This document shows, one piece after another, positions 45,676 to 63,735 of a stretch of DNA of 64,000 bases. The first letter of the stretch is position 1; each line of letters begins with the position of its first letter. Source of the stretch: Nitrospinaceae bacterium (GTDB taxonomy: Bacteria > Nitrospinota > Nitrospinia > Nitrospinales > Nitrospinaceae); assembly GCA_965223665.1 (NCBI GenBank), contig OZ245011.1, positions 2,528,001 to 2,592,000 on the forward strand, written 5' to 3'. The notes beneath the pieces are model-generated. The model did no database searches, was not told where the DNA came from, and saw nothing but the letters and a program-made list of their open reading frames with translations. The translations under genes were made by a program, and so were the position numbers.

Positions 45676-45720
45676 GGCACGCCTGGCAGGACTCGAACCT
45701 GCGACCTACGGATTAGAAGT
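45676..45720 (-). mobile_element. att site: 3' fragment of tRNA-Arg(TCT)
   Basis: Reverse complement ACTTCTAATCCGTAGGTCGCAGGTTCGAGTCCTGCCAGGCGTGCC covers anticodon loop to acceptor stem. The 5' half of the tRNA is absent and an integrase is adjacent. Confidence 0.9.
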
Positions 45721-45892
45721 ACATCGAATACTTTAATTTCCTTTCCTTCCTTGATCTTCCCATAAGTTCCCAATATAATAATTTCAGCTATTTATAAACC
45801 TTATCGAGAAAATTGTTTTTCTTCGAAAGTAGAGATGGGAAGTATTGGGAATGCAAAAATGTGATAAAAATGTGATAAAAGTAGACCCGCGG

Positions 45893-47098: not shown

Positions 47099-47105
47099 GA
47101 ATAAA

Positions 47106-48071
47106 ATGAATGAATTAATAAAGTATTTAGAAATTCATCCTTCCTTTAACCAAAATACAAAACCTGAGCAATTAGAGAAAATTTTGAGAGGTCCATGGTG
47201 TCCATTACTTGGAAGAATTCCAAAACTCGGGCTGCCATTAAATTCACCCGAAAACAGGTGTTTGTTTATAATAATTGAATCAAGAAAATTATGGGGGATC
47301 GACTTTGAGCCAACTTTTAATAGATGTGGAAAAAATCCCGACTGGCCGAAAAAGAATAGTATAAATTCTTACCCCGAAAAGGAATTTGCGGAGATTGTTT
47401 TAAAGACGGCGCGTGAAATTGATCGGTTGTCACCGTCGATAATGTTGAATTCTGAAATTCGAGATCCCAAGAAAGATTATCTTTTAATGGAAGATGGATC
47501 TTACGCTATTTCTAAGGGTATTGATCAGGTTCCAATTCATGAAATACGAATTGTTGCGAATTCTTTGTTACGTCCAAGCTATCAAAAATTTAAAGATCAA
47601 CAACTTTTGGCAAGTCTAGCTATTTACAGTGCTTGGCATGTTTTTGAATTTTTGATAAGAAAATTTTCAGATGTAGATATAACTGAAATACTTCCCAGGT
47701 TATACCGGGCGGAAGGTTTATTAAGAACAGCAAAAATAATAGAGGGTAATGAAAAAGCCGAAGATTCAATAAAGTTAGGATTCCAAAAAGGACAAAAAGA
47801 AGGAATCTCAGTCCAAAATAGATTAAATGCCAAGAAACCCAGAAGGCCTGATCCGTTAAATGAATTTATTTTAAATATCCTTAAAAAAAATAAAGGCAAT
47901 CTAAATTCAAATCAAATGTGGCAGATTATTAAAGCAAATGTAGGCGAAGACTGTATAGTGACTGTGACCGATTCGGTTATTGAGTATGAAGATAAAAATT
48001 CCAGGATAAACTCGTTAAAGAAAAAATCTTTCCCTCCTCGATTCCATAGAATAAAAAAATTGCTCTTTTAA
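47106..48071 (+). CDS. Hypothetical island protein
   Basis: 321-aa ORF 7 nt after int with an AGGA RBS; basic C-terminus. Confidence 0.65.
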   Translation: MNELIKYLEIHPSFNQNTKPEQLEKILRGPWCPLLGRIPKLGLPLNSPENRCLFIIIESRKLWGIDFEPTFNRCGKNPDWPKKNSINSYPEKEFAEIVLKTAREIDRLSPSIMLNSEIRDPKKDYLLMEDGSYAISKGIDQVPIHEIRIVANSLLRPSYQKFKDQQLLASLAIYSAWHVFEFLIRKFSDVDITEILPRLYRAEGLLRTAKIIEGNEKAEDSIKLGFQKGQKEGISVQNRLNAKKPRRPDPLNEFILNILKKNKGNLNSNQMWQIIKANVGEDCIVTVTDSVIEYEDKNSRINSLKKKSFPPRFHRIKKLLF

Positions 48072-48170
48072 AATTTCAAAAGCGCGCTTTTGAAATTTTA
48101 CCAATGTAAATTAACTATCAATTATTAACCCAATGGAAAAGTTGGGAACTTTACATTGGAAAGGAGAATT

Positions 48171-48383
48171 ATGAATAAAGAAATCAACCCTAAAATGATA
48201 GCCCGCACAAATGTTCACGAGTTATTCCCTGGTCTTTCCTCTAAATACTTAGCCAATTTGAAATCACTGGGGAAAGGTCCTCAACCTTATAAAGTGGGAC
48301 GAAGAATTTTCTACCTTGTATCCGACATTGAAGGGTTTATGAAGAAAAATCCTCTTCCTTTAAAAGCTGGAAACCCTATTTAA
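48171..48383 (+). CDS. AlpA/excisionase-like HTH DNA-binding protein
   Basis: GLSSKYLANLKSLGKGPQPYKVGRRIFYLVSDI matches the MerR-like HTH pattern of Xis/AlpA proteins; AGGAG RBS. Confidence 0.8.
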   Translation: MNKEINPKMIARTNVHELFPGLSSKYLANLKSLGKGPQPYKVGRRIFYLVSDIEGFMKKNPLPLKAGNPI

Positions 48384-48501
48384 ATTCTCAAATTGTTAAT
48401 TTAAGTCAATGCAGCAAATATTGAAAAATTTATTTTTTTACATAATTTTATACTGCCGTGAGAATAATACTTTCCAAAGGATTTAAAATCAAAGGTGAAT
48501 T

Positions 48502-49596
48502 ATGAAATGGTTTAAACATATGACCGATGCTCAAGATGATGAATTTATTGCCGAATTGGAATCTCAGTATCGTGGATTTGATGGTCCTGGTCGATGGTGG
48601 AGATTGTTAGAAATCATTGGCAAGCATGTGGACCAAACAGGGAAGTGTGAAGCCATCTATTCTGTTTCGCAATGGTGTCAAAAGTTAAAAGTGACGCGTT
48701 CAGGTCTGCTTAAGTTTACAAACTTGGTGGTAATTTGGGGCAAAGTGGAAACCAAAACTATTGATACAAGAATGCTAATAAGATGCCCTAAGTTACTAGA
48801 AATAAGAGATGAATATACAAGGAAATCCGGACAATCTCCTGATAAACTCCAACCAGAAACAGAAGCAAAAACAAATTTAAGAAATAATAAAAAAGAAAAG
48901 AGTGTAGAAAAGCCTTCACTCTCAATGACTGTGAAACAAAAATTTACAAATCTAAAGCAACTTGGTCCTCCCGCATCTTTAAATGGCAATGTATCTGATA
49001 TTGATAAATTCTTAAACCAAGCTCAACGTGTTCATACTAAGATCCGGGGACCAATGATCCTAAATCAAAAAAGGGACGTTAAGGTAGCGCATCGGTTAGT
49101 AAAGGAAATTCCAGACTTCAAACGGCTCAACCTACTCTGGACAATTTTTCTTAATCTAAATAATTCCTGGCTTAACACCAACCCTGGTAGGCGCTGTTTG
49201 AGCGTGTTCCCAAAGTTTTTAAATGATTGCCAAGCAGAAGTTAATCGTTTGTTTAAAGCCCGGGATTACCGAAAACAAAATAGCAGACGGGGAAACAAAA
49301 CAACGCCAAAATATGAACCCTTAACTAGAGATGATCAAATCACTTGGCAAACAGTTTTGAAAGAAGTTGAGTCTTCTAACTTGCCAGAGAATTACCAAAC
49401 CTGGTTTACCCCAATTTATCCCTTAGGCCGCAAGGGGAAAAAATTAATTATTGCAGTTCCTAACGAATATTTTTCACGTTGTTTATCTGAAAACTATTTA
49501 AAGAGGATTATGAAAATATTGAATGAACTGGATAGTACAATTGAAAATGTTGAATTTATGGCAAAACCTGAAGAAAACATGGGTGCATTCAATTAA
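48502..49596 (+). CDS. Phage-type replication initiator with a C-terminal DnaA domain I-like region
   Basis: N-terminal MKWFKH.TDA.DD...G.G.WW.LLE.I and PKLLEIRDEY (replisome-organiser-like); C-terminal WQTVL...YQTWFTP...LIIAVPNEY....SENY. Confidence 0.75.
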   Translation: MKWFKHMTDAQDDEFIAELESQYRGFDGPGRWWRLLEIIGKHVDQTGKCEAIYSVSQWCQKLKVTRSGLLKFTNLVVIWGKVETKTIDTRMLIRCPKLLEIRDEYTRKSGQSPDKLQPETEAKTNLRNNKKEKSVEKPSLSMTVKQKFTNLKQLGPPASLNGNVSDIDKFLNQAQRVHTKIRGPMILNQKRDVKVAHRLVKEIPDFKRLNLLWTIFLNLNNSWLNTNPGRRCLSVFPKFLNDCQAEVNRLFKARDYRKQNSRRGNKTTPKYEPLTRDDQITWQTVLKEVESSNLPENYQTWFTPIYPLGRKGKKLIIAVPNEYFSRCLSENYLKRIMKILNELDSTIENVEFMAKPEENMGAFN

Positions 49597-49632
49597 TGGT
49601 CAATTGATTTTTAGTTGATATCATTTTTATAG

Positions 49633-49730
49633 CTTACGGGTCCTTCCTAGGGGTCGTGCCTAACGGGTGCGCGGCAGCACTGGATATCGCTAGAGAACTG
49701 TCCAAAAAATGTTTTGACGTTTTGACGCTT
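49633..49730 (+). other. Lambda-like cos site (cosQ, cosN, possible cosB repeats)
   Basis: TTACGGGTCCT...AACG-GGTGCGCGGCAG-CACTGG-ATA-TCGCTA, then TTTTGACG x2; a GC-rich patch directly upstream of terS. Confidence 0.7.
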
Positions 49731-49806
49731 TAGAAAGTCTTTTAAACTGTTTTTGGATTCTCAAAACCTTTGTAACTCATTTCAAATAAAAGACTGAAAT
49801 ATTTTT

Positions 49807-50346
49807 ATGGAATTAGTTTCTCTTTATGAATATGAAAAAAGAACGGGAATCAAGCGTCAAAAAACTCACTACAATGTAAAAATTGGACGCCTCAAAACTT
49901 ATAAGGGAAAAATAAATGTAGATGAGGCCAATGAACTATTTGGCTTAATAGATAAGATTGAATCAAATCAAGAATCTTTTCATTCAAATAAATCCAATAA
50001 GAATGAAGAGGAATTCAATTACTATAAGGAACGAGCTATACATGAAAAGTTAAAAATACAACTCACACAATTAGAATTGGGAAGAAAGTCCGGTCAACTT
50101 GTGGAAATTGAATTAGTAGATCAGGAATTGAGTAAGTTAGTAACCGCAGTTCGCCAGAGGTTGTTGGCTTTACCTACCAAACTTACACCTCAACTAGTTA
50201 ATCAAAAATCTCCGGGGTTCATTAAAGAATTAATTACTGAAGCAATTTACGAAGCATTAAGTGAATTTCAACATTATAACCCGGAAAGCGGAAAAATTCT
50301 CTCCGAAAAACTCACATGCTCTCAAGGAGAAAGTGATAATTATTGA
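49807..50346 (+). CDS. terS: Terminase small subunit, lambda Nu1/Rpp-like
   Basis: N-terminal HTH; YYKERAIHEKLK.QL.QLE...SGQLV...V.......VRQRLLALP.KL.P coiled-coil pattern typical of Nu1-like TerS. Confidence 0.8.
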   Translation: MELVSLYEYEKRTGIKRQKTHYNVKIGRLKTYKGKINVDEANELFGLIDKIESNQESFHSNKSNKNEEEFNYYKERAIHEKLKIQLTQLELGRKSGQLVEIELVDQELSKLVTAVRQRLLALPTKLTPQLVNQKSPGFIKELITEAIYEALSEFQHYNPESGKILSEKLTCSQGESDNY

Positions 50347-50582
50347 CTCACTATCTTTTAACTTATATTATTTCTTTAAGAATTAAAGACAAAACTAATT
50401 TTTCAGGTTTCTCGAGAAGGGTTGAGGGTAAATTGTTCAAATCCTAAAAAAAGAAAATTCGATGTTATGCAATTTACATCTTCCTCAGCAAATTATTGAT
50501 ATTTTGAATTATTTTTTAAATTGGATAAAAAATTAATTTTTTTATTTAAATAAATTTAACTCCAATAGGTTCGTAGTTTTTT

Positions 50583-52277
50583 ATGAAAGCTGGTATTACT
50601 TTCCTAGGTATAATTTTAATAATAATTCCTCTTACTTTTTCTGATATTTTTGCAGATGGGGAGCGCGGTCTCAGAGTAATTTTGACTGACAAACCCAAAA
50701 ATAAAGTGTTCTATAAGGAAAGTCATGCATTAATAATCGGTGCAACCAATTATACGCAAGGTTGGCCTAGTTTTCCTAACATCGAAAACGAAATTAACAA
50801 GATAAAAGAAATTCTTTCAAAAATTGGATTTGATGTTGAAGTATTAATGGATCCCACAAAAAGCCAAATGGTTTCGTATATATCAGATTTTGCAGACCAC
50901 TTCGGTCAAGAGATTGATTCTCGCATATTTCTTTATTTTATTGGTCACGGATATTCTCACAAAAATTTCTTTTCTCAGAAAACCGGATTCTTTGTACCGG
51001 TTGATGCACCGAAACCGAATAAAGATTTAGACGGATTTATAAAAAAAGCCTTTTCTTTAAATGAACTAGAGTCTATTACCAGTGGAATTAAAGCAAAACA
51101 TATTTTGTATCTATTTAATAGTTCCTTTACTAATGCCAATATGTCTTCCACTCCTTTTTCACAAAATGAAATAACTTTGGAAACCAACCAAGCTTCCAGG
51201 CAAATAATAATTGCTGATACTAATAGTTTATTGGTTGGGAAAAAACATGGGTTGGGGGAAATGTTTGTTAATGCTCTAAAAGGAATGGGAGACTTCAACA
51301 AAGATGGAAAAATAACCGGAAGTGAATTAGCTAAATACTTTCGTGATTCAATAAAAGAGTATTCAAATGAGAACTGGGATATACAGTTTGGAAACTTCCA
51401 AAGTTTGGAGAATGCAAAAGGGGATTTTGTTTTTTCAAAAATCTCCTCAGAGTTATCAGAAGATAAATCTATTCACTCTTATGAAAATTCAGAAAAAGAT
51501 GAAAACACGGACGATTTTAAAACCGAGACCTCTATTGATGAAAAGAAGCGTATTGCTGAGGAGGAGAGAAGGATAAAAGAGATAAAGGAAAAGCTGAAAT
51601 TATCAAGTTTGGAACCCCAAAAAAAGATTCCTTTTGTAACCCAATCTACTCCCCCTGAAGGAATGGTATTTGTTCTAGGTTCCGAATACCTAGCCGGTTC
51701 TGAGAAAACAGGAAGTGACTCTGTACCTTTACGAAAAGTATTTATTCAGAGTTTCTACATTGATAAAACAGAGGTAACCCAAGAGAAATATAAAAAAATC
51801 ATGGGAAGAAATCCCTCAAGGTTTAAAGGAGAAAATCTTCCTGTGGAAAGAGTTAGTTGGTCAAAAGCCCGAAAGTATTGCCAAAAAATAGGTAAACGAC
51901 TTCCTACAGAGGCAGAATGGGAATATGCTGCGAGGGGAGGAGCTGGAAATAATTCACTCGGAGATTATTGGTTCAATGGAAATACTCAACATAGTCAACC
52001 AGTTGGGAAGAAGGAACCCAATTCAATTGGATTATACGATATGCTTGGGAATGTGTGGGAATGGACCCAAGACTGGTATGACAAAAATTACTATGAAACC
52101 AGATTGGATAATAACCCTCTTGGCCCTAAAAAAGGAACTAAAAAAGTTTTACGTGGTGGAGCATGGAATTCATCCTTGGATATGATTCATCCCTCTTATC
52201 GAAGTTACTACGATCCCAGATACAAGAGTGCGACTTTTGGTTTTCGATGTGCGAAAAGCTTAAAAAATAACCAGTGA
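50583..52277 (+). CDS. Secreted caspase-like (peptidase C14 fold, catalytic Cys absent) plus FGE/SUMF1-domain protein
   Basis: SHALIIG..NY, FIGHG, but LFNSSF in place of DxC. C-terminal FYIDKTEVT, PVERVSW, RLPTEAEWEYAARG, DMLGNVWEW, FGFRC. Confidence 0.85.
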   Translation: MKAGITFLGIILIIIPLTFSDIFADGERGLRVILTDKPKNKVFYKESHALIIGATNYTQGWPSFPNIENEINKIKEILSKIGFDVEVLMDPTKSQMVSYISDFADHFGQEIDSRIFLYFIGHGYSHKNFFSQKTGFFVPVDAPKPNKDLDGFIKKAFSLNELESITSGIKAKHILYLFNSSFTNANMSSTPFSQNEITLETNQASRQIIIADTNSLLVGKKHGLGEMFVNALKGMGDFNKDGKITGSELAKYFRDSIKEYSNENWDIQFGNFQSLENAKGDFVFSKISSELSEDKSIHSYENSEKDENTDDFKTETSIDEKKRIAEEERRIKEIKEKLKLSSLEPQKKIPFVTQSTPPEGMVFVLGSEYLAGSEKTGSDSVPLRKVFIQSFYIDKTEVTQEKYKKIMGRNPSRFKGENLPVERVSWSKARKYCQKIGKRLPTEAEWEYAARGGAGNNSLGDYWFNGNTQHSQPVGKKEPNSIGLYDMLGNVWEWTQDWYDKNYYETRLDNNPLGPKKGTKKVLRGGAWNSSLDMIHPSYRSYYDPRYKSATFGFRCAKSLKNNQ

Positions 52278-52280
52278 TTT

Positions 52281-55200
52281 CTATTTAACCGCAATCACAA
52301 GGTTCCTCATTCCTGTGGGTATTACTGCGAAAGGATGCTGCGTACTGTCCAGTTCTGAATTTGGAATGGATTTCAATAAAATTCCTCGACTTTGCATAGC
52401 AGATAATACTTCAATATTTCGCTTAGGAACTTCTTTGTCTACATAATTTCTTAATGAAGTAAAAAATAATTTTCCATCTTTAAATCGAGCCTTACCTTTT
52501 ATCCCATCTATGATTGCCCGGGTGAAAACGCCGCCCTTTTCCGTTTCTAATCCAAGTTCCTGACGAGATGTTCCTGTATAAATAATAGAATTCACATCAT
52601 GAATATCTTTAGCTAATTTCTGAAGGTCTTTCGAGTTTTCACTAATCACTTCCCCAGCTTCGCAAGTATCAATAATTACCATGCGTCTGCCAAGGGTTTG
52701 ATCTAAGATTTTATGCAATTTTACCCAATCAAAGCTAGTCCCCGAAGTAGACACTTTTAACTGACTATTGGATTTTTTGATTTCAGAATCTGCTGTCAAA
52801 AAATGATAATTTCCCTTTTCGTCAGTTATCCCGTGACCCGCAAAAAAATAGATCGTAGTATCATTTGGTCCAATATTTTGTATCTGGTTCAATAAAAAGG
52901 TATCAATGTCTGAGGCTTTTATTAATTTCCCATCTTGATCAGTCAAAATATTCACAACAACATTTTTAAAAAGTTTTTTTCCTTTAATTTTAAAAAGTTG
53001 AGCCATATTGAAAGCATCCAGAGGAGGGGAATACAATTGTTGCTTCTCAGGTAAATTGGGATATTGACCTATCCCAATAGCATTAACATGCAAGGTACCT
53101 TCATTGTTTTCGTTTTTATCTTTTTTGTTATTTTTTACCCATCTTTGATCACCATTTTCTGCCCACAAATTTTCAACCAGAACCTTTATGTGGTTATTAC
53201 TTCTTGGAAGAAAAGTTTGAAAATGTAAAGTATCCCCAGGATTGACTCCAGAAAGATTTCTTTGCTCTTGGGGAAGGATTTGGAAACCATTTACATAAAT
53301 GGTTATCCGTTCGGGTACCGTAATCTTATTTTTCCCCAGTTTGATGTTTATATCTGTTTTCCCTGATTTGTCGGTCTGGATGGATGCAATTTTTACATTT
53401 ACCGGAGCTCGTTTGATTAACTCATCAACCGAAATTTTTTCCAGGCCGGCCTTTTTAATTGCCCGCGTTGAGGAACTTAAAGCAAGAGTATCTCTAATAA
53501 TATCAGGACGATAAAGAAATCGGCGAAATTGGGAAGCAGTGTAATAATCGGCTGGCTTATCATATCCTCTATTTACCCGCCAACCCACATAACGATCTCC
53601 TTTGGGAGAAGCATCATAAAACCCCTCAGGTGTCCAAGCAACCCACTCATCATCAAATCCATGAAAAATACTGAGAAGCAGGCTACCTGAAGATATATCC
53701 CAAATCTTTATTGTTTGATCCGCGGAGCCTGAAAATAGCCAGCGGTTATCAGGCGAAACCGATAAAGCCCAAACATCAGACGTATGACCAATAAAGTCAT
53801 TCACTTTTTTGCCATTTTCAATGTTGTAAGAAGTTAAAACACCGTGAGCACCCCCACTAATAATTAATTTCCCGTTGTGAGTTATGGTAACACTTCGGTG
53901 GTCAGAACCCGTAAACTGGTCTTTCTTTATCCTTTTATGAAAGACTCCCTTTTTATAAATGTTAAGAGTAGGATGAATATTTTTATTAGGTGTATCTATT
54001 GACCAGTTTTCTATTTTCTTAAAAGCCTGAAAATAATTTTTATCGTCTTGTATTAAAGAACCGACACCAAGATTAAAATCACCAGAGGGTTCCTGCAAAA
54101 TAAAACTTTTTAAGAGAGGAACATTGAACTTAAGGCAACTTTTTCCAGGACAAATTCTTTTTTTTCTCCAAGCAAGTCTCTTTCCCTCTTTTGAAATACC
54201 AATACCAAAAATTCCTTTTCCTTTTCCAACCAATTTTTTTATAACTTCTCCAGTAGATATGTCCCATAAATAAAATTCATGGTTTACTCCTCCACCTGTG
54301 AGAGCGATTTTTCCATTTGGAGAAATAGCTGTCGCTAATGTAATATTGTCATGTTTGCTAAAAAAAGATAGACGCTTCCCAGTTGGAATTTCAAAAACAT
54401 TGTTTATTGAGGTATCACCAGCAGCTCCAGTTAAAACTTTTTTCCCATCCGGAGAAATGGAAATATTTGCTACATCGGAACCCTGCACTCCTAAGATTTT
54501 TAAATATTTTCCAGTTAGGCCGTTCCATATTCGAATACTATTGTCCCGGCTTCCCGAAAGTATGTACTCCCCATTCGGAGTAAAAGCAACTGTATCAACA
54601 AAATCTATATGTCCTCTTAAGTTGGAAATTAGGTTGCCAGATGAAACATCCCATAGTTTTAACGTATTATCATGACTCCCTGTTACAACCATTGAGTCAT
54701 CCGGTGAAAAAGCGACTGCCGCAACTTTTCCTTTATGACCTTTCAATATATGTTTTGTTTTTCCAGTTTTTAGATTCCAAATTCTAGCAATATTATCAAA
54801 GCCTCCTGAGATCAAAAATTTACCACTATTTGAAAAAGCTAAGTCTAGAATAACGTTTGTATGCCCCTTTAATAATTTGATTATTTCACCAGTATGGAAA
54901 TCTATAATTCGAATATTTCCACATTGGCCGGGGCATTCATTGTGAAACCACCCTCCCAAAGCTAACAGATTATTATTGGGAGAAAGAGCCGCAGCGTATA
55001 TCATTCCTTCTGTTGCATTTCCAATTTGTCCCCTGAAAACTTTTGTGGTAATTCCTCTTTCAATATCTATCACACGGGCAGTTTTATCGTCAGAGATTGT
55101 AACCAAACTTTTACCATCTTTAGTAAAAAATGCATCTCTAATAATGGATGTATGACCTCCTGAATTAATTTCAAGAATAGGCTTTTCAAATGAATTTTTA

Positions 55201-55397
55201 GTATTACTAACCTTATTGAATGAAATATTAGTTCTATAGAATAATGGGGAGGTTAAGGATACGTTTTGAGGGGCAGCGTTTAACTTACTAGTGAAATGAG
55301 AAAAAAAAATAAAACAAATAGAAGTAATTATACTTAATATCAAATGCAATTTAGAAAGAGACCTGACAGGAAGGCCTATTTTGCATGTTTTTGACAT
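52281..55397 (-). CDS. WD40-repeat plus caspase (peptidase C14) protein, probably exported
   Basis: Many GH...WD repeats, EWVAWTPEGFYDAS linker, intact FFAGHG and IIDTCEAG dyad, N-terminal hydrophobic signal. Confidence 0.9.
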   Translation of the reverse strand: MSKTCKIGLPVRSLSKLHLILSIITSICFIFFSHFTSKLNAAPQNVSLTSPLFYRTNISFNKVSNTKNSFEKPILEINSGGHTSIIRDAFFTKDGKSLVTISDDKTARVIDIERGITTKVFRGQIGNATEGMIYAAALSPNNNLLALGGWFHNECPGQCGNIRIIDFHTGEIIKLLKGHTNVILDLAFSNSGKFLISGGFDNIARIWNLKTGKTKHILKGHKGKVAAVAFSPDDSMVVTGSHDNTLKLWDVSSGNLISNLRGHIDFVDTVAFTPNGEYILSGSRDNSIRIWNGLTGKYLKILGVQGSDVANISISPDGKKVLTGAAGDTSINNVFEIPTGKRLSFFSKHDNITLATAISPNGKIALTGGGVNHEFYLWDISTGEVIKKLVGKGKGIFGIGISKEGKRLAWRKKRICPGKSCLKFNVPLLKSFILQEPSGDFNLGVGSLIQDDKNYFQAFKKIENWSIDTPNKNIHPTLNIYKKGVFHKRIKKDQFTGSDHRSVTITHNGKLIISGGAHGVLTSYNIENGKKVNDFIGHTSDVWALSVSPDNRWLFSGSADQTIKIWDISSGSLLLSIFHGFDDEWVAWTPEGFYDASPKGDRYVGWRVNRGYDKPADYYTASQFRRFLYRPDIIRDTLALSSSTRAIKKAGLEKISVDELIKRAPVNVKIASIQTDKSGKTDINIKLGKNKITVPERITIYVNGFQILPQEQRNLSGVNPGDTLHFQTFLPRSNNHIKVLVENLWAENGDQRWVKNNKKDKNENNEGTLHVNAIGIGQYPNLPEKQQLYSPPLDAFNMAQLFKIKGKKLFKNVVVNILTDQDGKLIKASDIDTFLLNQIQNIGPNDTTIYFFAGHGITDEKGNYHFLTADSEIKKSNSQLKVSTSGTSFDWVKLHKILDQTLGRRMVIIDTCEAGEVISENSKDLQKLAKDIHDVNSIIYTGTSRQELGLETEKGGVFTRAIIDGIKGKARFKDGKLFFTSLRNYVDKEVPKRNIEVLSAMQSRGILLKSIPNSELDSTQHPFAVIPTGMRNLVIAVK

Positions 55398-55486
55398 TTT
55401 TAGATCTTGTATTGACTAAAAAAATATTAATTTTTTTTTAAAAAGAAATACTTCGTATTCTAAATAATTATACAATGAAATTAAAT

Positions 55487-57670
55487 TTATTGATCACCTT
55501 GACAGGCTTGGTCTCCTTCAATACAGCCTCCGGCATCTAACTCCTCTGTTTCTTGTTCAAGTAGGACTATCATATCTGCCGGGTCAGTTTTCTCAGGTTG
55601 TCTTTCTTCACTTTTAGTTTTAGTAATTTGGCGAGTAGATTGAACCGCCTGTTCAGCGGGTTCATTAGTTGTCTGGCTGTCCACTCGGGCTTGGCATGCT
55701 GGTCCGCTGCAATTTCTACCTCCCCCTCCGGGATCCCGTTTATATCCTCTTGGTTGTCCTAAAAGCACAAGCTGACCGCCCTCTATCGAACGGTCTGGAC
55801 CCCTTGTATCCAAGGTAATATTGTCTAAAAAGGAAAGATCCCGAAATTTCCAATCTAACACTTGCCCTTCGGTAACGGAATTTTCATCTTCATCTACCAC
55901 AGTATCTAAATTTGATATTAGAATCCCAATATTCCCTCCTCTGGTTGTAATTCTATTGTTTGTTTCTTCAAATATAATTTCATTTGTTTCAAAAAGTACA
56001 GAGGGGGTTGGGTATTTCTGGTCCCCAGGCGTAATTCCTCCGTCAATACCGTCTATTAAAAATTTTTCACCATCTTTACGTAAGGTTTGTTTAAGATCCA
56101 AGATATTATCTGAAAGCCTTTCTAAAATTATTGCTTCATCTGCAATTAAATGAATGAATGTATCTTTTCCTATTCTTTCCAAGGCTTCCTCCGAAACAAC
56201 CTCTGTTCCTAGTTCCGCATTATCTCTACTGTCTGGAACCGGATCTGTTTGAAAACCACTAAGATCATTTTCGATGGATCCTCCATCAAATTCAGTTCTA
56301 CTATCTGAAAATATCGAGATTTCACCAATAGGTTTTTCCAAGAGTGGTCTTCCAAATTCCTCATCAGTGATTCTCAATATTCTTGGATCTAACAATAGAG
56401 CTCCAGCTGAGCCATTTGTAGAACCTGCATCTACAAATCCAGCAAAAGTGAGGTTTTCTTTTCCTGATACTTCTACCAATCCACCGTCGCCCGAAACTGA
56501 ACCACCTCGTGAATCAATATTTCCAAAATAACGTGTCGTTCCATCCGCCCAAAGAATGACCTTGCCACCGTCTCCGTTTTCCAAAGCAGATGCATCAATT
56601 ATTGTATTGGGCCCTACATAAGTTTGAGTAGCATTCGGTACCTCTCCCTTACCCTGGAAATCTCCTCCGACTAATGCAGTTCCTCCTCCAGATACTCCCG
56701 AAACATTTATAAATGCATATTGAAATAACCCTACCTTATCTCCCAACACATGAACCGTACCACCCATATCCCCTGATTCATTGCCAGATGCATCCAATTC
56801 GCCGGTTACAGCAGTAATTCCATTCTCTCCACCCATCAGCCAGATTTCCCCATTTTTCTCCTGGAGAGTATTTGCCCGGATTCGACCTGAATGATTCACC
56901 GTATTACGAATTACGGAACCTGCATCCAACGCTGAAAGTATTACTCTTCCACCATCTGCTTCAATTATTCCGGTATTTAATACTCTATTTTCAAGAATGT
57001 TACCTTGATCATCAAGAACATCCCCTTCCACTGCTTCAGATATTGCGAAGTTAATCAAACCATCACCCGCAAAATCAAGAGTAACCTCAGTACCTGAAGC
57101 CAAGGCCACAGACCCAAGGTTTGCCGTTATGGTCCCTTTGTTGTATACCGCCGGAGCAAGTAATCCTATTGTGGTTCCCTCAATATGCCCTTCATTAATA
57201 ATTGCAGACAAGGGATTATTTGGATCTTGAGAAAACAAATAATTTTGATTCAAAAAATCCTGGTCTGAAATATTCAATGTAGTTGCTACTAAGCCTCCGA
57301 CATTAATACGGGCATCTTGACCAAAAATAATTCCTGAGCGGTTCGTAAGAAAAACTTTTCCATTCGAGGATAAACTTCCCAAAATAGCACTGGGATTAGC
57401 CCCTACCACTCGATTGAGCGCAACAGCATTTGAATTGGGTTGAGAAAAATGAACAGACTCAGCTTTTCCAATACTGAAGGAATTCCAATTGGTTATCAGT
57501 TGTTGGGAGGATTGGTTAATCACCATACTCTTCGGATCAGGTTGGTGAATATTTCCTTGACCAGATGTGATTTGACCTCCTTGGGGAAGTGCAAAGGAAG
57601 AAAGAGGATTAGCAAAATAAAGGATAATTAGAAAGCTGAGAAAACTTTTCTTGAAAAATATTTTATTCAT
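55487..57670 (-). CDS. TpsA / filamentous-haemagglutinin N-terminal (TPS) domain exoprotein
   Basis: Signal peptide then ALPQGGQITSG, NWNSFSIG, LNRV.G..PS.I.G.L.SNG.VFL.N, and GG.VEVSG...LLLDP beta-helix repeats. Confidence 0.9.
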   Translation of the reverse strand: MNKIFFKKSFLSFLIILYFANPLSSFALPQGGQITSGQGNIHQPDPKSMVINQSSQQLITNWNSFSIGKAESVHFSQPNSNAVALNRVVGANPSAILGSLSSNGKVFLTNRSGIIFGQDARINVGGLVATTLNISDQDFLNQNYLFSQDPNNPLSAIINEGHIEGTTIGLLAPAVYNKGTITANLGSVALASGTEVTLDFAGDGLINFAISEAVEGDVLDDQGNILENRVLNTGIIEADGGRVILSALDAGSVIRNTVNHSGRIRANTLQEKNGEIWLMGGENGITAVTGELDASGNESGDMGGTVHVLGDKVGLFQYAFINVSGVSGGGTALVGGDFQGKGEVPNATQTYVGPNTIIDASALENGDGGKVILWADGTTRYFGNIDSRGGSVSGDGGLVEVSGKENLTFAGFVDAGSTNGSAGALLLDPRILRITDEEFGRPLLEKPIGEISIFSDSRTEFDGGSIENDLSGFQTDPVPDSRDNAELGTEVVSEEALERIGKDTFIHLIADEAIILERLSDNILDLKQTLRKDGEKFLIDGIDGGITPGDQKYPTPSVLFETNEIIFEETNNRITTRGGNIGILISNLDTVVDEDENSVTEGQVLDWKFRDLSFLDNITLDTRGPDRSIEGGQLVLLGQPRGYKRDPGGGGRNCSGPACQARVDSQTTNEPAEQAVQSTRQITKTKSEERQPEKTDPADMIVLLEQETEELDAGGCIEGDQACQGDQ

Positions 57671-57713
57671 GACTCCCCCAAGTATAAAAATATCAAAAAA
57701 ATATCCTTTGAAA

Positions 57714-59477
57714 TTAAAAAGTCAAAATTCCATTTACAAGCCAAGTATGATCACTCCCATCAGAGGGCCTTGGTCCTGACAGAGGCTTACTGTAACTTAC
57801 GGCAAATGAAAAAGCCGGGATCCAAAACTCAGCTTTTAATTTTGGAATATTGATTTGCAAACCAAACCCATATCCAGAGATATATTCATCATTAGATTCC
57901 CCCGGCAAAGCATCAATAACAAAAACACCCCCGTAATCAATAAATCCAATAAAAGAAAAAATATCCTTTAATGACAAACCATTGATGCCCAAAGGTATAT
58001 CTACAGGGAACGGTAAAACATATTCAGCAGAAACTGCAAATCCATGGTCTCCTGAAAACTCTGCCAAGGGATACCCTCGAACTGTACCTACACCCCCAAT
58101 GGCAAATAAGTCCGGGGCCAGAACCCTAGAGCTTGCTATTTGCCCTGACCCTTTTAATATGAAATAACTATTTAATACATTTATATTTTGATACCGAGTT
58201 ATTACTGCATACCCAATGGTCGCATCATCATTTCCTCCTCGGTCTAAAGGAAGAAGATTACTCTCGTCAAAAACCGTTTGCTGACCTCTTAAATCAAAAA
58301 ACGTCCACCCTAAAAAATTATCTCGTATATTTCCCCTAATCGCTATAAAAGCATCCCCAATATCATCATCACTGGTTTTGATAGTATCAAACTGGAAGTT
58401 ATTATAAATTCTGTATTCAAATCCTCCGAATAAACCAATTTGAATTGATCGAGATCTGAATACAGGGATTCCCAATTCAATGTTAAATAAATTTGCATCC
58501 CCTCCTCCTCTTAATGCCGAAAGAGATTGTCCCAGTGTAAAATCTGAATAAGTGTAAGAAAACTTTAAAGAAAACCCGAGGCTATTAAAAAAATATAAAT
58601 AAGAGGCATTGATATAATTTAAATCCTCGTCGGTTTTGATTCCTCTAAAATAAATTTGATCTCCAAGACTCAAAAGGTTCGCAACTAAAGCCGACACACC
58701 AAATCTGTTTCCGCCTGTAAAACGGGATCCAAAATTATCACCGTCAATAGAAATAGAATAATTTTGGGTTTCAGTAATTTGAAGGACCAGATCGGAAGTG
58801 CCTGGAAGTTCTCCTGGACGTAAAGTGGATCGAACAGTAACGCCCATAAGATCATTTAATTGCAAAAGCAAACTTTCAAGATTTTGTTCCCTTAAAGGAG
58901 CTCCTCCCGTAAGTTTTTTTAGTCGGGCTCTGATATCATTAGAATCAATCTTGTTGTTACCCAATATTTCAATTTGATCTACCCTACCTTCTGCAATTAT
59001 AATTTTTACTAGACCATCTAATATTTTCTGTTGTGGAATATAGGCTTCAGATAGAATAAAACCTTCTTCACCATAGAAAGAAGTTATCTTATTCGCAATT
59101 TGATTCAATTCCTCTACAGTCATTTTCTTATTTGGAGAAACTTCTATAATCTCAGATAATTTTTGGTCACTAAAAACCGTATTGCCTTCAAAAATAATTT
59201 GTTTTACCAATACCGATGGACCTTTTAACCTTTCCGGTGCTTTGACTTTTGGTCCTTTCGTACCTGTATCCGGTATTGAAATTTCTGGTTGTTTTTTTTC
59301 GGGAGGTCGAACCGTGGGTTGAGATTTTCGAAGGGATCTATCAATAACACCTGATTTACCAGCATCAGGAACTTGGGAAAGGGAAAAGTCTACAAAACCT
59401 AGAATTATTACAAAAGAAAGAAAAAACCCAACAAAAACAGGTCGAACAGTTAGAATTAGCATAGTGAAGATCACCAA
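57714..59477 (-). CDS. TpsB (ShlB/FhaC/HecB) outer-membrane transporter
   Basis: POTRA motifs (FEGNTVFS, ITSFY...GFILS..YIPQQ, EGRV), DNFGSRFTG, IGGVGTVRGY (VRGY loop), C-terminal F. Confidence 0.92.
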   Translation of the reverse strand: MVIFTMLILTVRPVFVGFFLSFVIILGFVDFSLSQVPDAGKSGVIDRSLRKSQPTVRPPEKKQPEISIPDTGTKGPKVKAPERLKGPSVLVKQIIFEGNTVFSDQKLSEIIEVSPNKKMTVEELNQIANKITSFYGEEGFILSEAYIPQQKILDGLVKIIIAEGRVDQIEILGNNKIDSNDIRARLKKLTGGAPLREQNLESLLLQLNDLMGVTVRSTLRPGELPGTSDLVLQITETQNYSISIDGDNFGSRFTGGNRFGVSALVANLLSLGDQIYFRGIKTDEDLNYINASYLYFFNSLGFSLKFSYTYSDFTLGQSLSALRGGGDANLFNIELGIPVFRSRSIQIGLFGGFEYRIYNNFQFDTIKTSDDDIGDAFIAIRGNIRDNFLGWTFFDLRGQQTVFDESNLLPLDRGGNDDATIGYAVITRYQNINVLNSYFILKGSGQIASSRVLAPDLFAIGGVGTVRGYPLAEFSGDHGFAVSAEYVLPFPVDIPLGINGLSLKDIFSFIGFIDYGGVFVIDALPGESNDEYISGYGFGLQINIPKLKAEFWIPAFSFAVSYSKPLSGPRPSDGSDHTWLVNGILTF

Positions 59478-59773
59478 GAAGAATTCAGGTTAAGCGCATT
59501 GTTACTTTGATATTTTAATTGCTGTTTTTTAGGGTGATCTTGCTATTTCATGTCTAAAAAGTCAACTGTTTTTTTTCCGAAAATGATTGGTTAGTTTACA
59601 AAATATTCTTAAAGCAGGTGGGCGAGAAAAAGGAAAGAAAATGAGAGTAAATATAATCAATTTACAAAAATCCAAGCAAATTAATTAAACTAAAGTTAAA
59701 ATAAACCCTATATTTTCCAAAATTTACTTTACATCCAACTATGACTGCAAAAACTACAAAAATTGGTTATTTT

Positions 59774-60817
59774 TTAAGGAACGGTTTCGAATCTCCAGCT
59801 ACTTTTATAAAATTCAACGGGTTGTGACGAATCAGAACCAAGCAGTTTAACACCACGAGAAACCAGTTTGTCATATTTGACTTTTGTTCCTTTGAATTGA
59901 TTTAATCCAGAACCTATTGGAATTAAATCTGTCGTCCCTAATTGAGTTTCACTGGCAAATACGGTTACCGTGTCAATTCCAAAAGGTGGAGAAGATTCTA
60001 TTTCAAACTTATCTCCCTTGAGTTTGTCGGGTATCTCGTAAATCTGCCCTCTCTTAAAAAAATTATTGGTTCTTGCCTTATTAGGAAGCAGTTGAATAAC
60101 ATTACCATCTAAATCTGTATCAATTATATTTGCGAAAAAATCATGATTGCCCTGTAAATAAATAATTATCTTCTCCCCTTCTTTATATTGTTTCTTTTCG
60201 GTCCATACCCTCACGGTGAGAGGAGACCCCTTTTCTTTTAATAAATTTGATAAACTTTTGGGTTGAAAAGTCTGCACTTTTTTAACATTTGAACCAACTT
60301 TTCCTTTATCAAATTGCTCCTGATTATTGGCAAGATAGTTTTTCTCGGAAGCATTAATTTTAGAACTGGAGTTTGAGAGTTCAAGAATATATTCAATTTT
60401 TGCATTTATTCGGACATGGTATTTTGAGGTCTTTTTATCAAAACCATCATCAATCCGCTCTAATAAAGTTACATAGTTTCCATCTTTATTTTTGACAAGG
60501 TGAAAATCAAAGTATTTATTTTTTAATTTTGTCTTTGACATGATTATATTCTTTGAATTCTCAACAGCTTTAAGTTTAGCATCTTGTAATGCCTTTTCCC
60601 TAGCTACTTCCAAAGATTCATTTGGGCCTACATAATAATAACCATTGCTTTGCCGAATTACTGAGCGGGTTTCTTCCTGTGGGACAATTTCTAATCCACG
60701 AAATTGCTGTGACGATGCATTAGATGCGTTAACCATGCAAAGAATATAAATAGCAATCATAAATTTGCCCATAGCTAACAAAAAATGATTTTGAAACATG
60801 TTTTCCTCAATATTCAT
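59774..60817 (-). CDS. Exported DUF4384-domain protein with an N-terminal LPP20/FlgT-like region
   Basis: AREKALQDAKLKAVE; LTVRVWTEKKQYKEGE...GNVIQLLPN...YEIP...PPFG.DTV.VFAS. Confidence 0.8.
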   Translation of the reverse strand: MNIEENMFQNHFLLAMGKFMIAIYILCMVNASNASSQQFRGLEIVPQEETRSVIRQSNGYYYVGPNESLEVAREKALQDAKLKAVENSKNIIMSKTKLKNKYFDFHLVKNKDGNYVTLLERIDDGFDKKTSKYHVRINAKIEYILELSNSSSKINASEKNYLANNQEQFDKGKVGSNVKKVQTFQPKSLSNLLKEKGSPLTVRVWTEKKQYKEGEKIIIYLQGNHDFFANIIDTDLDGNVIQLLPNKARTNNFFKRGQIYEIPDKLKGDKFEIESSPPFGIDTVTVFASETQLGTTDLIPIGSGLNQFKGTKVKYDKLVSRGVKLLGSDSSQPVEFYKSSWRFETVP

Positions 60818-61014
60818 AACAACCTCTAAATGAAAAAAATCTTATCGAGAAAGTTTAAACTAAAATGAATTTTTATCTGTTTCAGGAAGGAAAAACGAGT
60901 GAAAAAAATATTTAAATAAAAGAAAGTATTAAATTTCTTTTCCCAATTTTAAAAATAAACAAATTTTAAAATGAAACTTTCCAAAATAAAATAATTTGGG
61001 GATCTGGAATTTCT

Positions 61015-61758: not shown

Positions 61759-62083
61759 CCGCCTCTCCTTCTAAAGATGGTTGGTCTTTATGTTTTTTAT
61801 TTAACTGAATTTTCCCCTCCTTTATAAGAGAAGATTTTTTGTCATAGGTCTTAAATAAAATCTTGGTAGTTTTTCTCTCATTAATAAATACTTTTGCTTC
61901 AACGCGTCCATTTTTAGGTAAATCCGGCAAAGAGCCAACAACACTTTTATTCAATTGATCCATCTGGTCAATTCTCTTTTCTATAAGCTCAGAATTCCCC
62001 CCCCATGCAAGCCCTACGAAAAATATACAAAGAATTTTTATAAAAAATAAAATATTCAAACATATGATCTTAGAATTCTTCAT
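61745..62083 (-). CDS. Small exported hypothetical protein
   Basis: ATG at 62083 overlaps the upstream stop; hydrophobic signal ending LAWG. Confidence 0.55.
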   Translation of the reverse strand: MKNSKIICLNILFFIKILCIFFVGLAWGGNSELIEKRIDQMDQLNKSVVGSLPDLPKNGRVEAKVFINERKTTKILFKTYDKKSSLIKEGKIQLNKKHKDQPSLEGEADGKN

Positions 62084-63428
62084 CACTAAGGATCCTTCCA
62101 ATTCCTGGAACACTTTTCTTTTGAGAATTAGGTTGCTTTTCTTTTTCTGGGGGATTGGAAGCTTGAGCATTGTGGCTTTGGACTGGCGCAGGATTCGATT
62201 GCACCCCTTCTGAATCCAAAATTTCTGGGGTTTCCTCTTTAGCAACTTCCGTAACAACACTCTTAGGAGCTTCTTCTAAATTATTTTGATTAATCTTGGT
62301 CAAAATCATTCGCCGCCCTAACGATTCTTTGTTAATGGGTATAGAAAAATAAATTTTTTTAAATAATTCTACATTTACTTTAGTGTTAGAAACCCCAAAA
62401 CTAGAGTCCACTTCTTTCAAAGCAGAAATCGTTGCCGGATCCAATGTACCATTTAAAGTAACATCATAACCGTATAAAAATAGCCATTCCTGAATTTTTA
62501 AAATAACTTCTGACTCGTTTAATGAAAAATAATAATTCTCTATCCCATCCACCACAACTATTCCAGGTTTAGCATCATCACCTAGAAGTCTCCAGTAAGG
62601 TAGGATAAAGTACTTTCCAATTATCTGAATCATACTCATTTCAACAAGAAGTCGGATTGCCGCATGCCTTCCCTGGACTTTTTTACTTGTTCCCTTAAGA
62701 CCGAAGTTAATTCCAAATAGACCAATCCCAAGCTCTTTACCTGCCACGGCCTTATGAACCTCCATGGTGGTAACCGTATTATTTCTTTGAATACCAACCA
62801 TAGTTTCAAAATTTAACAAATTGAAGTCCAGGGTTATACGAGCAAGCCCTTGCTTATTTCCAATACCACCTCTCAAAGACAAATCACCAGAAGACAAAAT
62901 ACTTGTTGGAGAACCCGGTATGGAAGCAGACCCATCAATATCCGTATTTTCTCCCTTTGTACTCAACCCTCTATCAAATTCTGTGATTCCACCACTTAAA
63001 ACCACCTCTGGGATAATTTTTTTCTCAAACCTTGAATATTCAGTATTTATCTGATTGGCCATAAAGTTTGGGTCGTATGGTATATATAATACGTTTCCAC
63101 CAATCGAGTTGAGCGAACTTTTAATCATTTCCGTAATATCTCTTGGTATTTCTCCTCCTGTCGAACCAGAGGTCCCGGTCAAATCGCTAATAGGTTTGCT
63201 TAGAATTTTCAAAATTGCCGTATCATAAATTTCGGTCATTAAACCTAAATCTCTTAATGCCTTTGTAAATGTAGTGGTTTTTACAGCGGGGGGAGTCGCT
63301 TTTAATTTTGCATCAACTTTTCTTGGGTCATTCGCGCAAGAAGAAACCAGGAAAAAAATAAGTAAGAAGGCCAACAAATAACTTGTCTGAAATATAAAAG
63401 ATTTACTTTTTAATCTATCTTCAAACAT
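62070..63428 (-). CDS. CsgG/HfaB-like lipoprotein with a peptidoglycan-binding-like C-terminal region
   Basis: Lipobox LVSSC; I.D.TG...EIPRDITEM, LSGGITEFDR, ITLDFNL; C-terminal QEWL...GY....G.LD.AT. Confidence 0.65.
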   Translation of the reverse strand: MFEDRLKSKSFIFQTSYLLAFLLIFFLVSSCANDPRKVDAKLKATPPAVKTTTFTKALRDLGLMTEIYDTAILKILSKPISDLTGTSGSTGGEIPRDITEMIKSSLNSIGGNVLYIPYDPNFMANQINTEYSRFEKKIIPEVVLSGGITEFDRGLSTKGENTDIDGSASIPGSPTSILSSGDLSLRGGIGNKQGLARITLDFNLLNFETMVGIQRNNTVTTMEVHKAVAGKELGIGLFGINFGLKGTSKKVQGRHAAIRLLVEMSMIQIIGKYFILPYWRLLGDDAKPGIVVVDGIENYYFSLNESEVILKIQEWLFLYGYDVTLNGTLDPATISALKEVDSSFGVSNTKVNVELFKKIYFSIPINKESLGRRMILTKINQNNLEEAPKSVVTEVAKEETPEILDSEGVQSNPAPVQSHNAQASNPPEKEKQPNSQKKSVPGIGRILSDEEF

Positions 63429-63735
63429 TGAAACCTTTGCATTTAAGAATATTTTTCTAAATAAGTAAATTATCCAAACTTCATCTATCACGCGAACAAT
63501 TGAAACTCAAGAAAATACAAATTCAATAGTTTTAAATCTAACCGGAAAAAAAATTCAGTTTTGGGGTAGGAGGTGACTAAACTCAGAAAAACCTTAAAGA
63601 GAAGATGGAGAAAAATTATCATACTAACCCTTCGCATAGAAAAATTTCCCTTGAGAGACAGTGACAGCTTTAAAGTACAAATCGATTTAGCAAAACAAAT
63701 AAACCTTTTGGGAAACTTACGAAATAGTATAAAAA

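Follow-up and report, generated by a model that had tools for sequence, protein, structure and literature searches.

The question raised by this locus is why three different proteins, predicted to be exported and encoded on one genomic island, carry copies of the same short peptide, Arg-Gly-hydrophobic-x-hydrophobic. The locus belongs to a Nitrospinaceae bacterium (GenBank assembly GCA_965223665.1) and lies within a stretch of 64,000 nucleotides of contig OZ245011.1 (positions 2,528,001 to 2,592,000) that was analyzed as a whole and is referred to here as the window. As recognized with Pfam, the three proteins are a caspase-like protein with a sulfatase-type domain (Peptidase_C14 and FGE-sulfatase), a WD40-caspase (WD40 and Peptidase_C14) and a DUF4384 protein; their export is a prediction, the signal peptides having been judged by a hydrophobicity rule and by eye. 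The initial annotation had reported four copies of the motif in these proteins, and all four are present in the open reading frames (ORFs) of the window, at R28, R1004, R40, and R321 (Table 1). Because the motif is conserved, the WD40-caspase keeps its dyad and acidic S1 pocket and the FGE protein is degenerate, we favor, on a modest balance of probability, the reading that the motif is a processing site at which the WD40-caspase would cut R|G both in cis and in trans, with the Arg as P1 residue. That the Arg acts as P1 in some form, whether in processing, as a bait or in ligation, seems probable.

Table 1. Positions in the window of the motif copies, the genes that encode them, and other features of the locus
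Feature	Position	Strand	Remarks
Motif 1, ERGLRV (R28-G-L-R-V)	50664..50678	+	Pseudocaspase-FGE protein, few residues past predicted signal peptide
Motif 2, SRGILL (R1004-G-I-L-L)	52374..52388	-	WD40-caspase, start of variable disordered insert
Motif 3, SRGVKL (R321-G-V-K-L)	59843..59857	-	DUF4384 domain, helix end and loop before last strand
Motif 4, FRGLEI (R40-G-L-E-I)	60686..60700	-	DUF4384 protein, after predicted signal peptide
Predicted exported pseudocaspase-FGE-sulfatase-domain protein, 564 aa	50583..52277	+	ORF and Pfam
Predicted exported WD40 - Ig-like - caspase protein, 1038 aa	52281..55397	-	ORF and Pfam
Catalytic His855 (52833-52835) to Cys912 (52662-52664)	52662..52835	-	WD40-caspase
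Predicted exported protein, 347 aa: FlgT_N-like N-terminal domain and DUF4384 beta-sandwich	59774..60817	-	
TpsA-like (TPS domain) and TpsB-like (POTRA/ShlB) genes	55487..59477	-	Between motif-bearing genes
Left copy of 45-bp direct repeat	45676..45720	.	Second copy about 38.7 kb downstream, window-equivalent 84331-84375

Conservation of the motif in three protein families

The pattern RG[LIV]x[LIV] occurs 227 times in the 1,283,930 residues of the mechanically called ORFs of this genome (in 205 of 3,743 ORFs), so that 0.34 occurrences are expected in the 1,949 residues of the three proteins, where four are seen (Poisson P = 4.5e-4). This test is post hoc, and the independent tests are those made on homologues. 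The initial annotation had also placed all four copies in exposed terminal segments, which has to be amended for R1004 and R321: rather than free tails, they occupy loops that interrupt folded domains shortly ahead of the final strands.

The WD40-caspase is predicted from its residues to be an active protease with an S1 pocket of the Arg/Lys type. Its caspase domain is recognized by PF00656 (E 2e-10, 41.2 bits against a cut-off of 21.4), and in an alignment of 18 close homologues both the His-Cys dyad (H855 and C912) and the acidic S1 residues D794 and D910 are invariant (18/18 in each case). In TbMC2, the acidic S1 residues that confer Arg specificity are D95 and D211 (PMC8283722; the papers cited here are drawn on in excerpt), and the equivalence of D794/D910 with these is taken from sequence position rather than superposition. 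The column of R1004 holds Arg in all 18 close homologues, followed by Gly (11), Ala (4) or Ser (3), then by an aliphatic residue in 18/18, with a further aliphatic residue at P4' in 15/18. The C-terminal insert that carries the motif varies in length, and the motif is present three times in tandem in P0038 and twice in P0045. In the AlphaFold2 model R1004 closes a helix (979-1003), residues 1003-1019 have a predicted local distance difference test (pLDDT) score below 50, and the last strands of the caspase domain follow. In this clade the residues immediately following the catalytic Cys include no Arg, and the C-terminal insert is present in its place. A second Arg, R713 (53259-53261, minus strand), is likewise invariant in 18/18 and lies in a loop of the Ig-like domain, near the site where other WD40-Ig-caspases bear the full motif; here varied residues follow it, and it was therefore not counted as a motif. 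A metagenome scan with the WD40-caspase alignment gave 12 loci. A sequence search of the caspase domain against solved structures returned chance nanobody matches only, and the Foldseek matches of the full-length model were all taken up by beta-propellers.

The DUF4384 domain (PF14326, E 9.5e-21, 74.1 bits against a cut-off of 27) is preceded by an FlgT_N-like domain for which nine of 29 family members give a weak Pfam match. R321 is invariant in these 29 aligned sequences (29/29), which are 27-44% identical. Among 77 proteins from 75 of 80 fetched DUF4384 loci (five were dropped from this count, the gene being shadowed in ORF calling), the same column holds Arg in 76, with Gly next in 54 and Thr before it in 54; P2 is Thr or Ser in 57/77, aliphatic residues predominate at P2' and P4', and P4 is variable (V 12, K 11, A 9, I 9). 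Scored over 139 DUF4384 domains, which are representatives of clusters at 50% identity after removal of 11 without an anchor and five truncated, the loop carries RG-hydrophobic-x-hydrophobic in 70, compared with 8 of 271 control windows from the same proteins. In the AlphaFold2 model R321 closes helix 312-321, the loop that follows is of low confidence (326-328 below 50 pLDDT), and a strand (334-346) comes next. The copy at R40 is optional: RG is present at this place in 4/28 homologues, and the locus proteins have the motif there in strict form in 9/80 and in broad form in 23/80.

A second DUF4384 protein (387 aa, C1:2596595-2597758, plus strand) is encoded within the island about 4.6 kb past the window end, and it carries YGRGIIIE (R350) near its C-terminus, the fifth motif copy in the island; its gene adjoins that of an LPP20-like exported protein.

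The FGE-caspase is filed here as a pseudo-enzyme, having failed the test for the catalytic Cys and the S1 Asp. Its His122 is kept, the catalytic Cys is replaced by Ser181, one S1 Asp by Asn179 and the other by Glu70, so that it reads FNSSFT where relatives read FDSCFS (D and C in 9/10 alignment rows); its matches in the ESM Atlas are ordinary Peptidase_C14 clusters. Of the 38 members of its subfamily, the window protein among them, 30 have R[GAS]-hydrophobic after the signal peptide (8 of 46 rows were excluded as belonging to another subfamily). The linker after the catalytic Cys holds Arg in 36/38 and Lys in one, and only the dead enzyme of the window has neither. This joint loss of linker Arg and catalysis fits a cis site in the linker, as a single case, and the retention of R28 in the dead enzyme fits trans cutting or, equally a single case, a docking or structural role.

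A mobile motif specific to exported caspases and DUF4384

The island is not the only place where the motif occurs: judged across the sequences collected, exported caspases and DUF4384 domains have it family-wide and at shifting positions, in the general form [T/S/D/E/Q/N]-R-[G/A/S]-hydrophobic-x-hydrophobic. Among 159 caspase proteins from DUF4384-bearing genomes, it occupies at least five places around the exported caspase domain. On the N-terminal side these are the stretch that follows the signal peptide and a loop of the Ig domain 50-60 aa away; then come the post-Cys linker and the C-terminal insert, and finally the residues immediately past the domain. For 52 diverse caspase domains (17-34% identical to the first) the consensus is DxCxSG..RG, and neither S1 Asp varies. 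Caspase representatives were clustered at 60% identity (5 of 75, open at the 5' end, were dropped), and the motif lies around the caspase domain in 26/54 exported and 1/16 non-exported ones (Fisher p = 0.003; shuffles 5.0 and 1.6). Within 20 aa of the signal h-region it is present in 7 of 23 N-type exported caspases, compared with none of 396 other exported neighbors. In strict form it occurs per 10,000 aa at 6.7 in caspases and 22.1 in DUF4384, against 2.1 in other neighbors and 1.5 in other exported neighbors. The idea of a general cargo tag was thus rejected, there being no enrichment in 1,715 other neighbors or in the 396 exported ones, and the motif characterizes exported caspases and DUF4384, the only groups enriched, rather than island cargo at large. 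Two paralogous non-DUF-loop proteins were dropped. The initial annotation had named a lack of enrichment or conservation in orthologues among the findings that would speak against its reading, and the motif is both enriched and conserved (R321 29/29, R1004 18/18, signal-peptide copy 30/38). Tandem arrays of three to six exported caspase paralogues occur in the single loci L155 (G020:C122:1-19000), L156 (G018:C123), and L157 (G019:C17), and genome G020 gives 24 caspase matches.

Where the DUF4384 loop is canonical, a genome-wide search found a caspase as well in 53 of 55 genomes; where it is degenerate, the figure is 9 of 17. Exported caspase-like proteins were found with Pfam in 65 of 78 genome rows, the genomes having been selected for DUF4384. 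The PF00656 profile by itself overlooked some caspases, among them those of G029, G049, and G051, and absences were therefore rechecked by alignment in 34 genomes, including all 13 that were Pfam-negative. The co-occurrence is weak because the negatives are two or three clades, mostly small assemblies, in which the Arg is kept. Locally, a caspase gene lies inside 25/80 DUF4384 loci within the fetched flank, and in 13/31 of those with full flanks. In the host family (21 genomes) DUF4384 is present in six, all six of which have caspases, and caspases are present in 7/21. Five of these relatives have caspase and DUF4384 domain matches 1.6-6.8 kb apart; in them the DUF4384 loop is TRDIS or degenerate, and an RG-type copy is present in the C-terminal tail instead. 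A genome of the same genus has neither caspase nor DUF4384, as expected of island cargo.

Proposed mechanism

We put forward a hypothetical mechanism for the three proteins, in which we infer export, cleavage, order of events, trigger, and output from the sequence data described above. The WD40-caspase, located in the periplasm, would be triggered, perhaps by a ligand on its propellers or by clustering, and would then bind the Arg of the motif as P1 and cut R|G. It would cut itself in the loop at R1004, which in this clade may replace the usual Arg site just past the catalytic Cys. In trans it would cut the DUF4384 protein at R321 (and R40) and the dead caspase-FGE protein at R28, the latter being degenerate and therefore needing to be cut by another enzyme. 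Each cut would expose a new N-terminus of the form G/A-hydrophobic-x-hydrophobic, and we suggest that this end, as a tethered beta-strand, docks on a caspase or DUF4384 domain and thereby switches the partner on or assembles a complex. With such a docked new N-terminus the module would be a proteolytic signaling switch of the envelope and not a degradative protease. That the new N-terminus is the functional product is the more speculative part of the proposal, and we advance it tentatively. It finds modest support in two lineages that lack the Arg, in which the signal peptidase site seems to yield the same end (AHA|GIVIK and VSA|GIVIK in one, LEG|AITVK and PEG|AITVK in the other), as if the freed G/A-hydrophobic-x-hydrophobic end did something, either as a tethered strand or as a nucleophile. 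The initial annotation had proposed R|G cutting by the caspase, both of itself and of its partner proteins, and this is partly supported: the motif is enriched and conserved in orthologues, it is placed within possible reach of an Arg-specific caspase, and the protease is predicted to be intact; the cleavage itself stays at the level of a proposal.

It should be noted that several observations weigh against this mechanism. The motif comes straight after a predicted helix at both R321 and R1004, and R-G-hydrophobic can act as a helix cap. The residues that follow the Arg are better conserved than those preceding it, in contrast to MALT1, and PsCaspase needs only the P1 Arg, so that cutting alone leaves the five-residue motif unexplained. 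The hydrophobic strand is present without Arg in subfamily members L044 (SWGLRV, with W at P1) and L077, the motif is lost in L314 and L299, and the signal peptidase cases are two lineages judged by eye. The DUF4384 Arg is kept in eight genomes without a detected caspase, mostly small and probably incomplete assemblies, and the co-occurrence across genomes rests on two or three clades. The regular expressions were broadened after the data had been seen (RG[ILVF]x[ILVM], R[GAS]), and the sequences counted are related, so that their independence is overstated; for these two reasons the p-values overstate the case.

Alternative explanations

A first alternative is that the motif is never cut and serves as a beta-strand that docks on an exosite of the caspase, on the WD40 propeller or on DUF4384 and so keeps a complex of the envelope assembled, the Arg being an anchor and not P1. 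The alternating hydrophobic pattern on the prime side, the retention of the motif in the dead enzyme and the Arg-less variants that retain the strand would all follow, as would the adaptor-like fusion of DUF4384 to kinases, TIR, CsgG, OmpA, SH3, and caspases. Among 34 longer DUF4384 proteins scanned, such fusions are to caspases (5), kinases (3), SH3 (3), TIR (2), CsgG (1), and OmpA (1). We nevertheless regard a purely docking role as unlikely, since no motif position varies less than the Arg at any of the sites, the Arg matches an invariant acidic S1 pocket, one motif site is the post-Cys linker, and the motif is restricted to exported caspase systems. A complex prediction for the caspase domain (762-1038) and the DUF4384 domain (195-347) gave a score of 0.01, which is evidence neither way. 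In P0157, P0237, P0139, P0153, P0235, and P0158 the DUF4384 domain is fused to TIR, Ser/Thr kinase or CsgG domains, which makes these proteins candidate protease-sensing receptors; the RG loop motif is present in P0139, P0158, and P0237 and not in P0153 and P0235.

The fold of DUF4384 brings in a second alternative, that R321 is the reactive site of an inhibitor or bait. Binding or cutting at this site would then block the caspase, and the copies inside caspases would be auto-inhibitory pseudo-substrates. The domain (59777-60235) resembles macroglobulin (MG) domains in its predicted fold: the top ten of 48,161 chains are all from alpha-2-macroglobulin or complement, at Z 7.7-8.5, and the best match, with a middling score in VIA-align, has Z 8.5 and a root-mean-square deviation of 1.9 A over 88 aligned residues. 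Foldseek gave E 4e-3 for the DUF4384 model against MG. In the ESM Atlas nothing was found for the domain at 0.9 or above with PF14326 excluded, and none of the 29 family members has an MG match in Pfam. The ranking offers a possible fold assignment for DUF4384. Alpha-2-macroglobulin inhibitors are a multi-domain cage with a thioester domain, whereas the DUF4384 protein of the window has two domains and is not such a cage. The baculovirus inhibitor p35 likewise presents a helix plus loop on a beta-sandwich. A cleavable inhibitor, PCi, accompanies the bacterial protease PCaspase (10.1101/2023.06.23.546230). Against an inhibitor, a Z of about 8 may mean only a common sandwich, DUF4384 is also part of kinases and TIR proteins, for which a sensor would be the better explanation, and a caspase gene lies near DUF4384 in only the 25 of 80 loci given above. 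We consider an inhibitor quite unlikely.

A third alternative concerns what happens after the cut. Asparaginyl endopeptidases (AEPs), PorU, and GPI transamidase belong to the caspase clan, and the exported caspases might, after an R|G-hydrophobic cut, move the acyl group to an N-terminal G/A-hydrophobic residue pair of the same or another chain. In doing so they would join the freed Arg to such N-termini and chain or cyclize DUF4384 proteins, pseudo-caspase receptors, and caspases into covalent assemblies of the envelope; in a related form they would be switches that exchange strands through a covalent step. The layout of the motif is by itself compatible with acyl transfer of the ligase type: it is present at both ends of the DUF4384 protein, and in the two lineages described above signal peptidase seems to be enough to form a G/A-hydrophobic N-terminus. 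For plant asparaginyl ligases the layouts are GL-Xn-NGL or GI-Xn-NHV, with selection for hydrophobic residues at P2'/P2'' (PMC8209628). The N-terminal copy in DUF4384 proteins is optional (the 9 of 80 in strict form), a tethered strand would account for the same facts, and ligase activity of a C14 caspase-like enzyme was not found in the literature searched. Both the transfer reaction as such and the covalent assemblies that it would build we judge improbable. Finally, that there is no shared function, helix caps and fold-internal strands having converged with some help from chance on R-G-hydrophobic, is very improbable. In its favor, two of the four sites close a predicted helix, the N-terminal motif often opens an apparent beta-hairpin, and the pattern, a post hoc choice, is present in 205 ORFs of the genome. 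Against it, both models show the motif segments as loops of low confidence; tandem copies exist, as do copies in Gly-rich linkers and at a free N-terminus; and the motif shifts position and falls to background in non-exported caspases and other neighbors.

The island and its surroundings

An integrase-bearing island of 38.7 kb, bounded by the 45-bp direct repeat, encloses all three motif-bearing genes. In the contigs of one sequencing study no differing letters were found; one contig, from a run that may itself be the source of this DNA, covers 50400-60900. Among the sequencing runs listed as holding this DNA none is of RNA. The left end of the island (45676-50346) encodes the integrase, a DnaA_N-bearing ORF, and a further small ORF. 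RG[LIV]x[LIV] has no match in the TpsA-like and TpsB-like proteins. Upstream of the DUF4384 gene a 473-aa lipoprotein-like ORF (62070-63491, minus strand) looks CsgG-like by eye; this assignment stayed unconfirmed, with no Pfam match and a BLASTP E of 0.075 to P0158. Two exported proteins built of 36-aa repeats follow past the window end (C1:2592303-2595058), and neither these nor the 473-aa ORF have the strict motif. Elsewhere in the window (24678-44942, minus strand), three very large paralogous exported proteins of 1734, 2837, and 1928 aa are encoded in tandem, with a metallophosphoesterase domain, HYR repeats, and disaggregatase-related domains.

The same genome encodes a third caspase (C1:2057052-2058746, 564 aa) with an intact dyad. 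Its signal peptide is followed by QARGNQ and its Cys by AKGVNSV, and it sits among a series of exported TPR proteins (C1:2048238-2060854). RG-hydrophobic-x-hydrophobic is also found just past the signal peptide of two unrelated exported-looking proteins, as ERGIYI (C1:3598478-3599089) and NRGIAV (C1:1457133-1458590), which may be chance or further substrates.

Implications

Sediment and marine bacteria commonly encode exported caspase-like proteins, and in the literature searched no natural substrate or activation step is named for them. A conserved mobile site that is common to proteases, dead copies, and DUF4384 gives the exact bonds to test. If the mechanism is true, DUF4384 would have a first function, as a cleavable element, switch or bait, carried by kinases, TIR proteins, CsgG-like proteins, and caspases, and the caspase family would have a role in envelope signaling rather than in cell death. 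If the improbable case of transpeptidation were true, it would be a bacterial, arginine-directed counterpart of the plant asparaginyl ligases, spread across many phyla, and ligation would be a new tool for protein engineering.

Comparison with known systems

The architectures caspase-WD40, caspase-FGE, and caspase-DUF4384, with probable signal peptides and pseudo-variants, have already been cataloged (PMC3501461, PMC8283722, PMC6426788). The literature searched, which left most subscription journals, figures, and supplements outside its reach, holds no description of a motif shared by exported caspases and DUF4384, and the available passages on DUF4384 describe no motif. The domain is often fused to protease domains, and as the C-terminal domain of Csx30 in type III-E CRISPR systems it belongs to a substrate of a caspase-like protease (10.1101/2022.08.17.504292). 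Unlike what we propose for the DUF4384 protein of the window, the cut in Csx30 frees the N-terminal part across a linker, and no motif within DUF4384 is described in the passages available.

Among bacterial caspase-like proteases, MaOC1, the orthocaspase of Microcystis aeruginosa, is Arg-specific and self-activates at Arg219 (PMC7475262, PMC5756287); it resembles the WD40-caspase as a prokaryotic C14 protease and has neither accessory domains nor, in the passages available, a known natural substrate. PsCaspase of type IV Thoeris is strict for Arg at P1 and needs nothing beyond it (10.1101/2024.10.24.620036), and PCaspase of type III-B CRISPR is activated by cleavage and paired with its cleavable inhibitor (10.1101/2023.06.23.546230). 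Both are bacterial and caspase-like, as the window proteases are, and unlike them are described as promiscuous executioners in phage defense. Among 15 window proteins examined with Pfam no cas, CRISPR, TIR, SAVED or STAND gene was recognized, the other half of the island having been read as translations only. The caspase defense modules of CRISPR, Thoeris, and Avs have cytoplasmic proteases, and the three proteins considered here look exported. The plant asparaginyl ligases butelase 1 and OaAEP1 share with the window motif the order P1-small-hydrophobic and its presence at both substrate ends, and use a G-hydrophobic N-terminal nucleophile; they differ in having Asn/Asp at P1 and in belonging to family C13 (PMC8209628).

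MALT1 cuts after Ser-Arg with LVSR as optimum (PMC3304489), the most conserved positions in its substrates being P4-P1' (PMC9463181), and its dead mutant is cut in trans by the active enzyme (PMC4126661). The Arg predicted here as P1, the Ser before it in the window's DUF4384 site, and the caspase domain beside Ig domains recall it; auto-cleavage that includes a dead copy in trans, together with site-specific signaling, is MALT1's own and is proposed likewise here. The DUF4384 site of the window reads LVSR|G, the very optimum of MALT1, a match that we put down to luck because P4-P3 vary in the family. Unlike the exported bacterial proteins, MALT1 is eukaryotic and cytosolic, with P4-P1' specificity, and here it is P1-P4' that are conserved and there is no death domain.

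LcCaspase of Lysobacter capsici is a precedent for R|G cutting by a bacterial caspase: it cuts its partner LcHydrolase twice, at putative sites conserved as R|G. Function there depends on precisely placed new ends, and in a model the end of a cut helix refolds as a strand (10.1101/2025.11.14.688446). In both cases there is a bacterial caspase-like protease with a co-encoded partner and R|G sites, putative there and predicted here. LcCaspase is described as a defense-associated death effector with an alpha/beta-hydrolase as substrate, whereas the enzymes considered here are predicted to be exported and have DUF4384 or another caspase as partner, and in the family of the window the motif also lies inside the proteases and extends to P4'. 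The system proposed here would work like a known pairing of protease and co-encoded R|G substrate, from which it differs in location, in partners, and in its extended prime-side motif.

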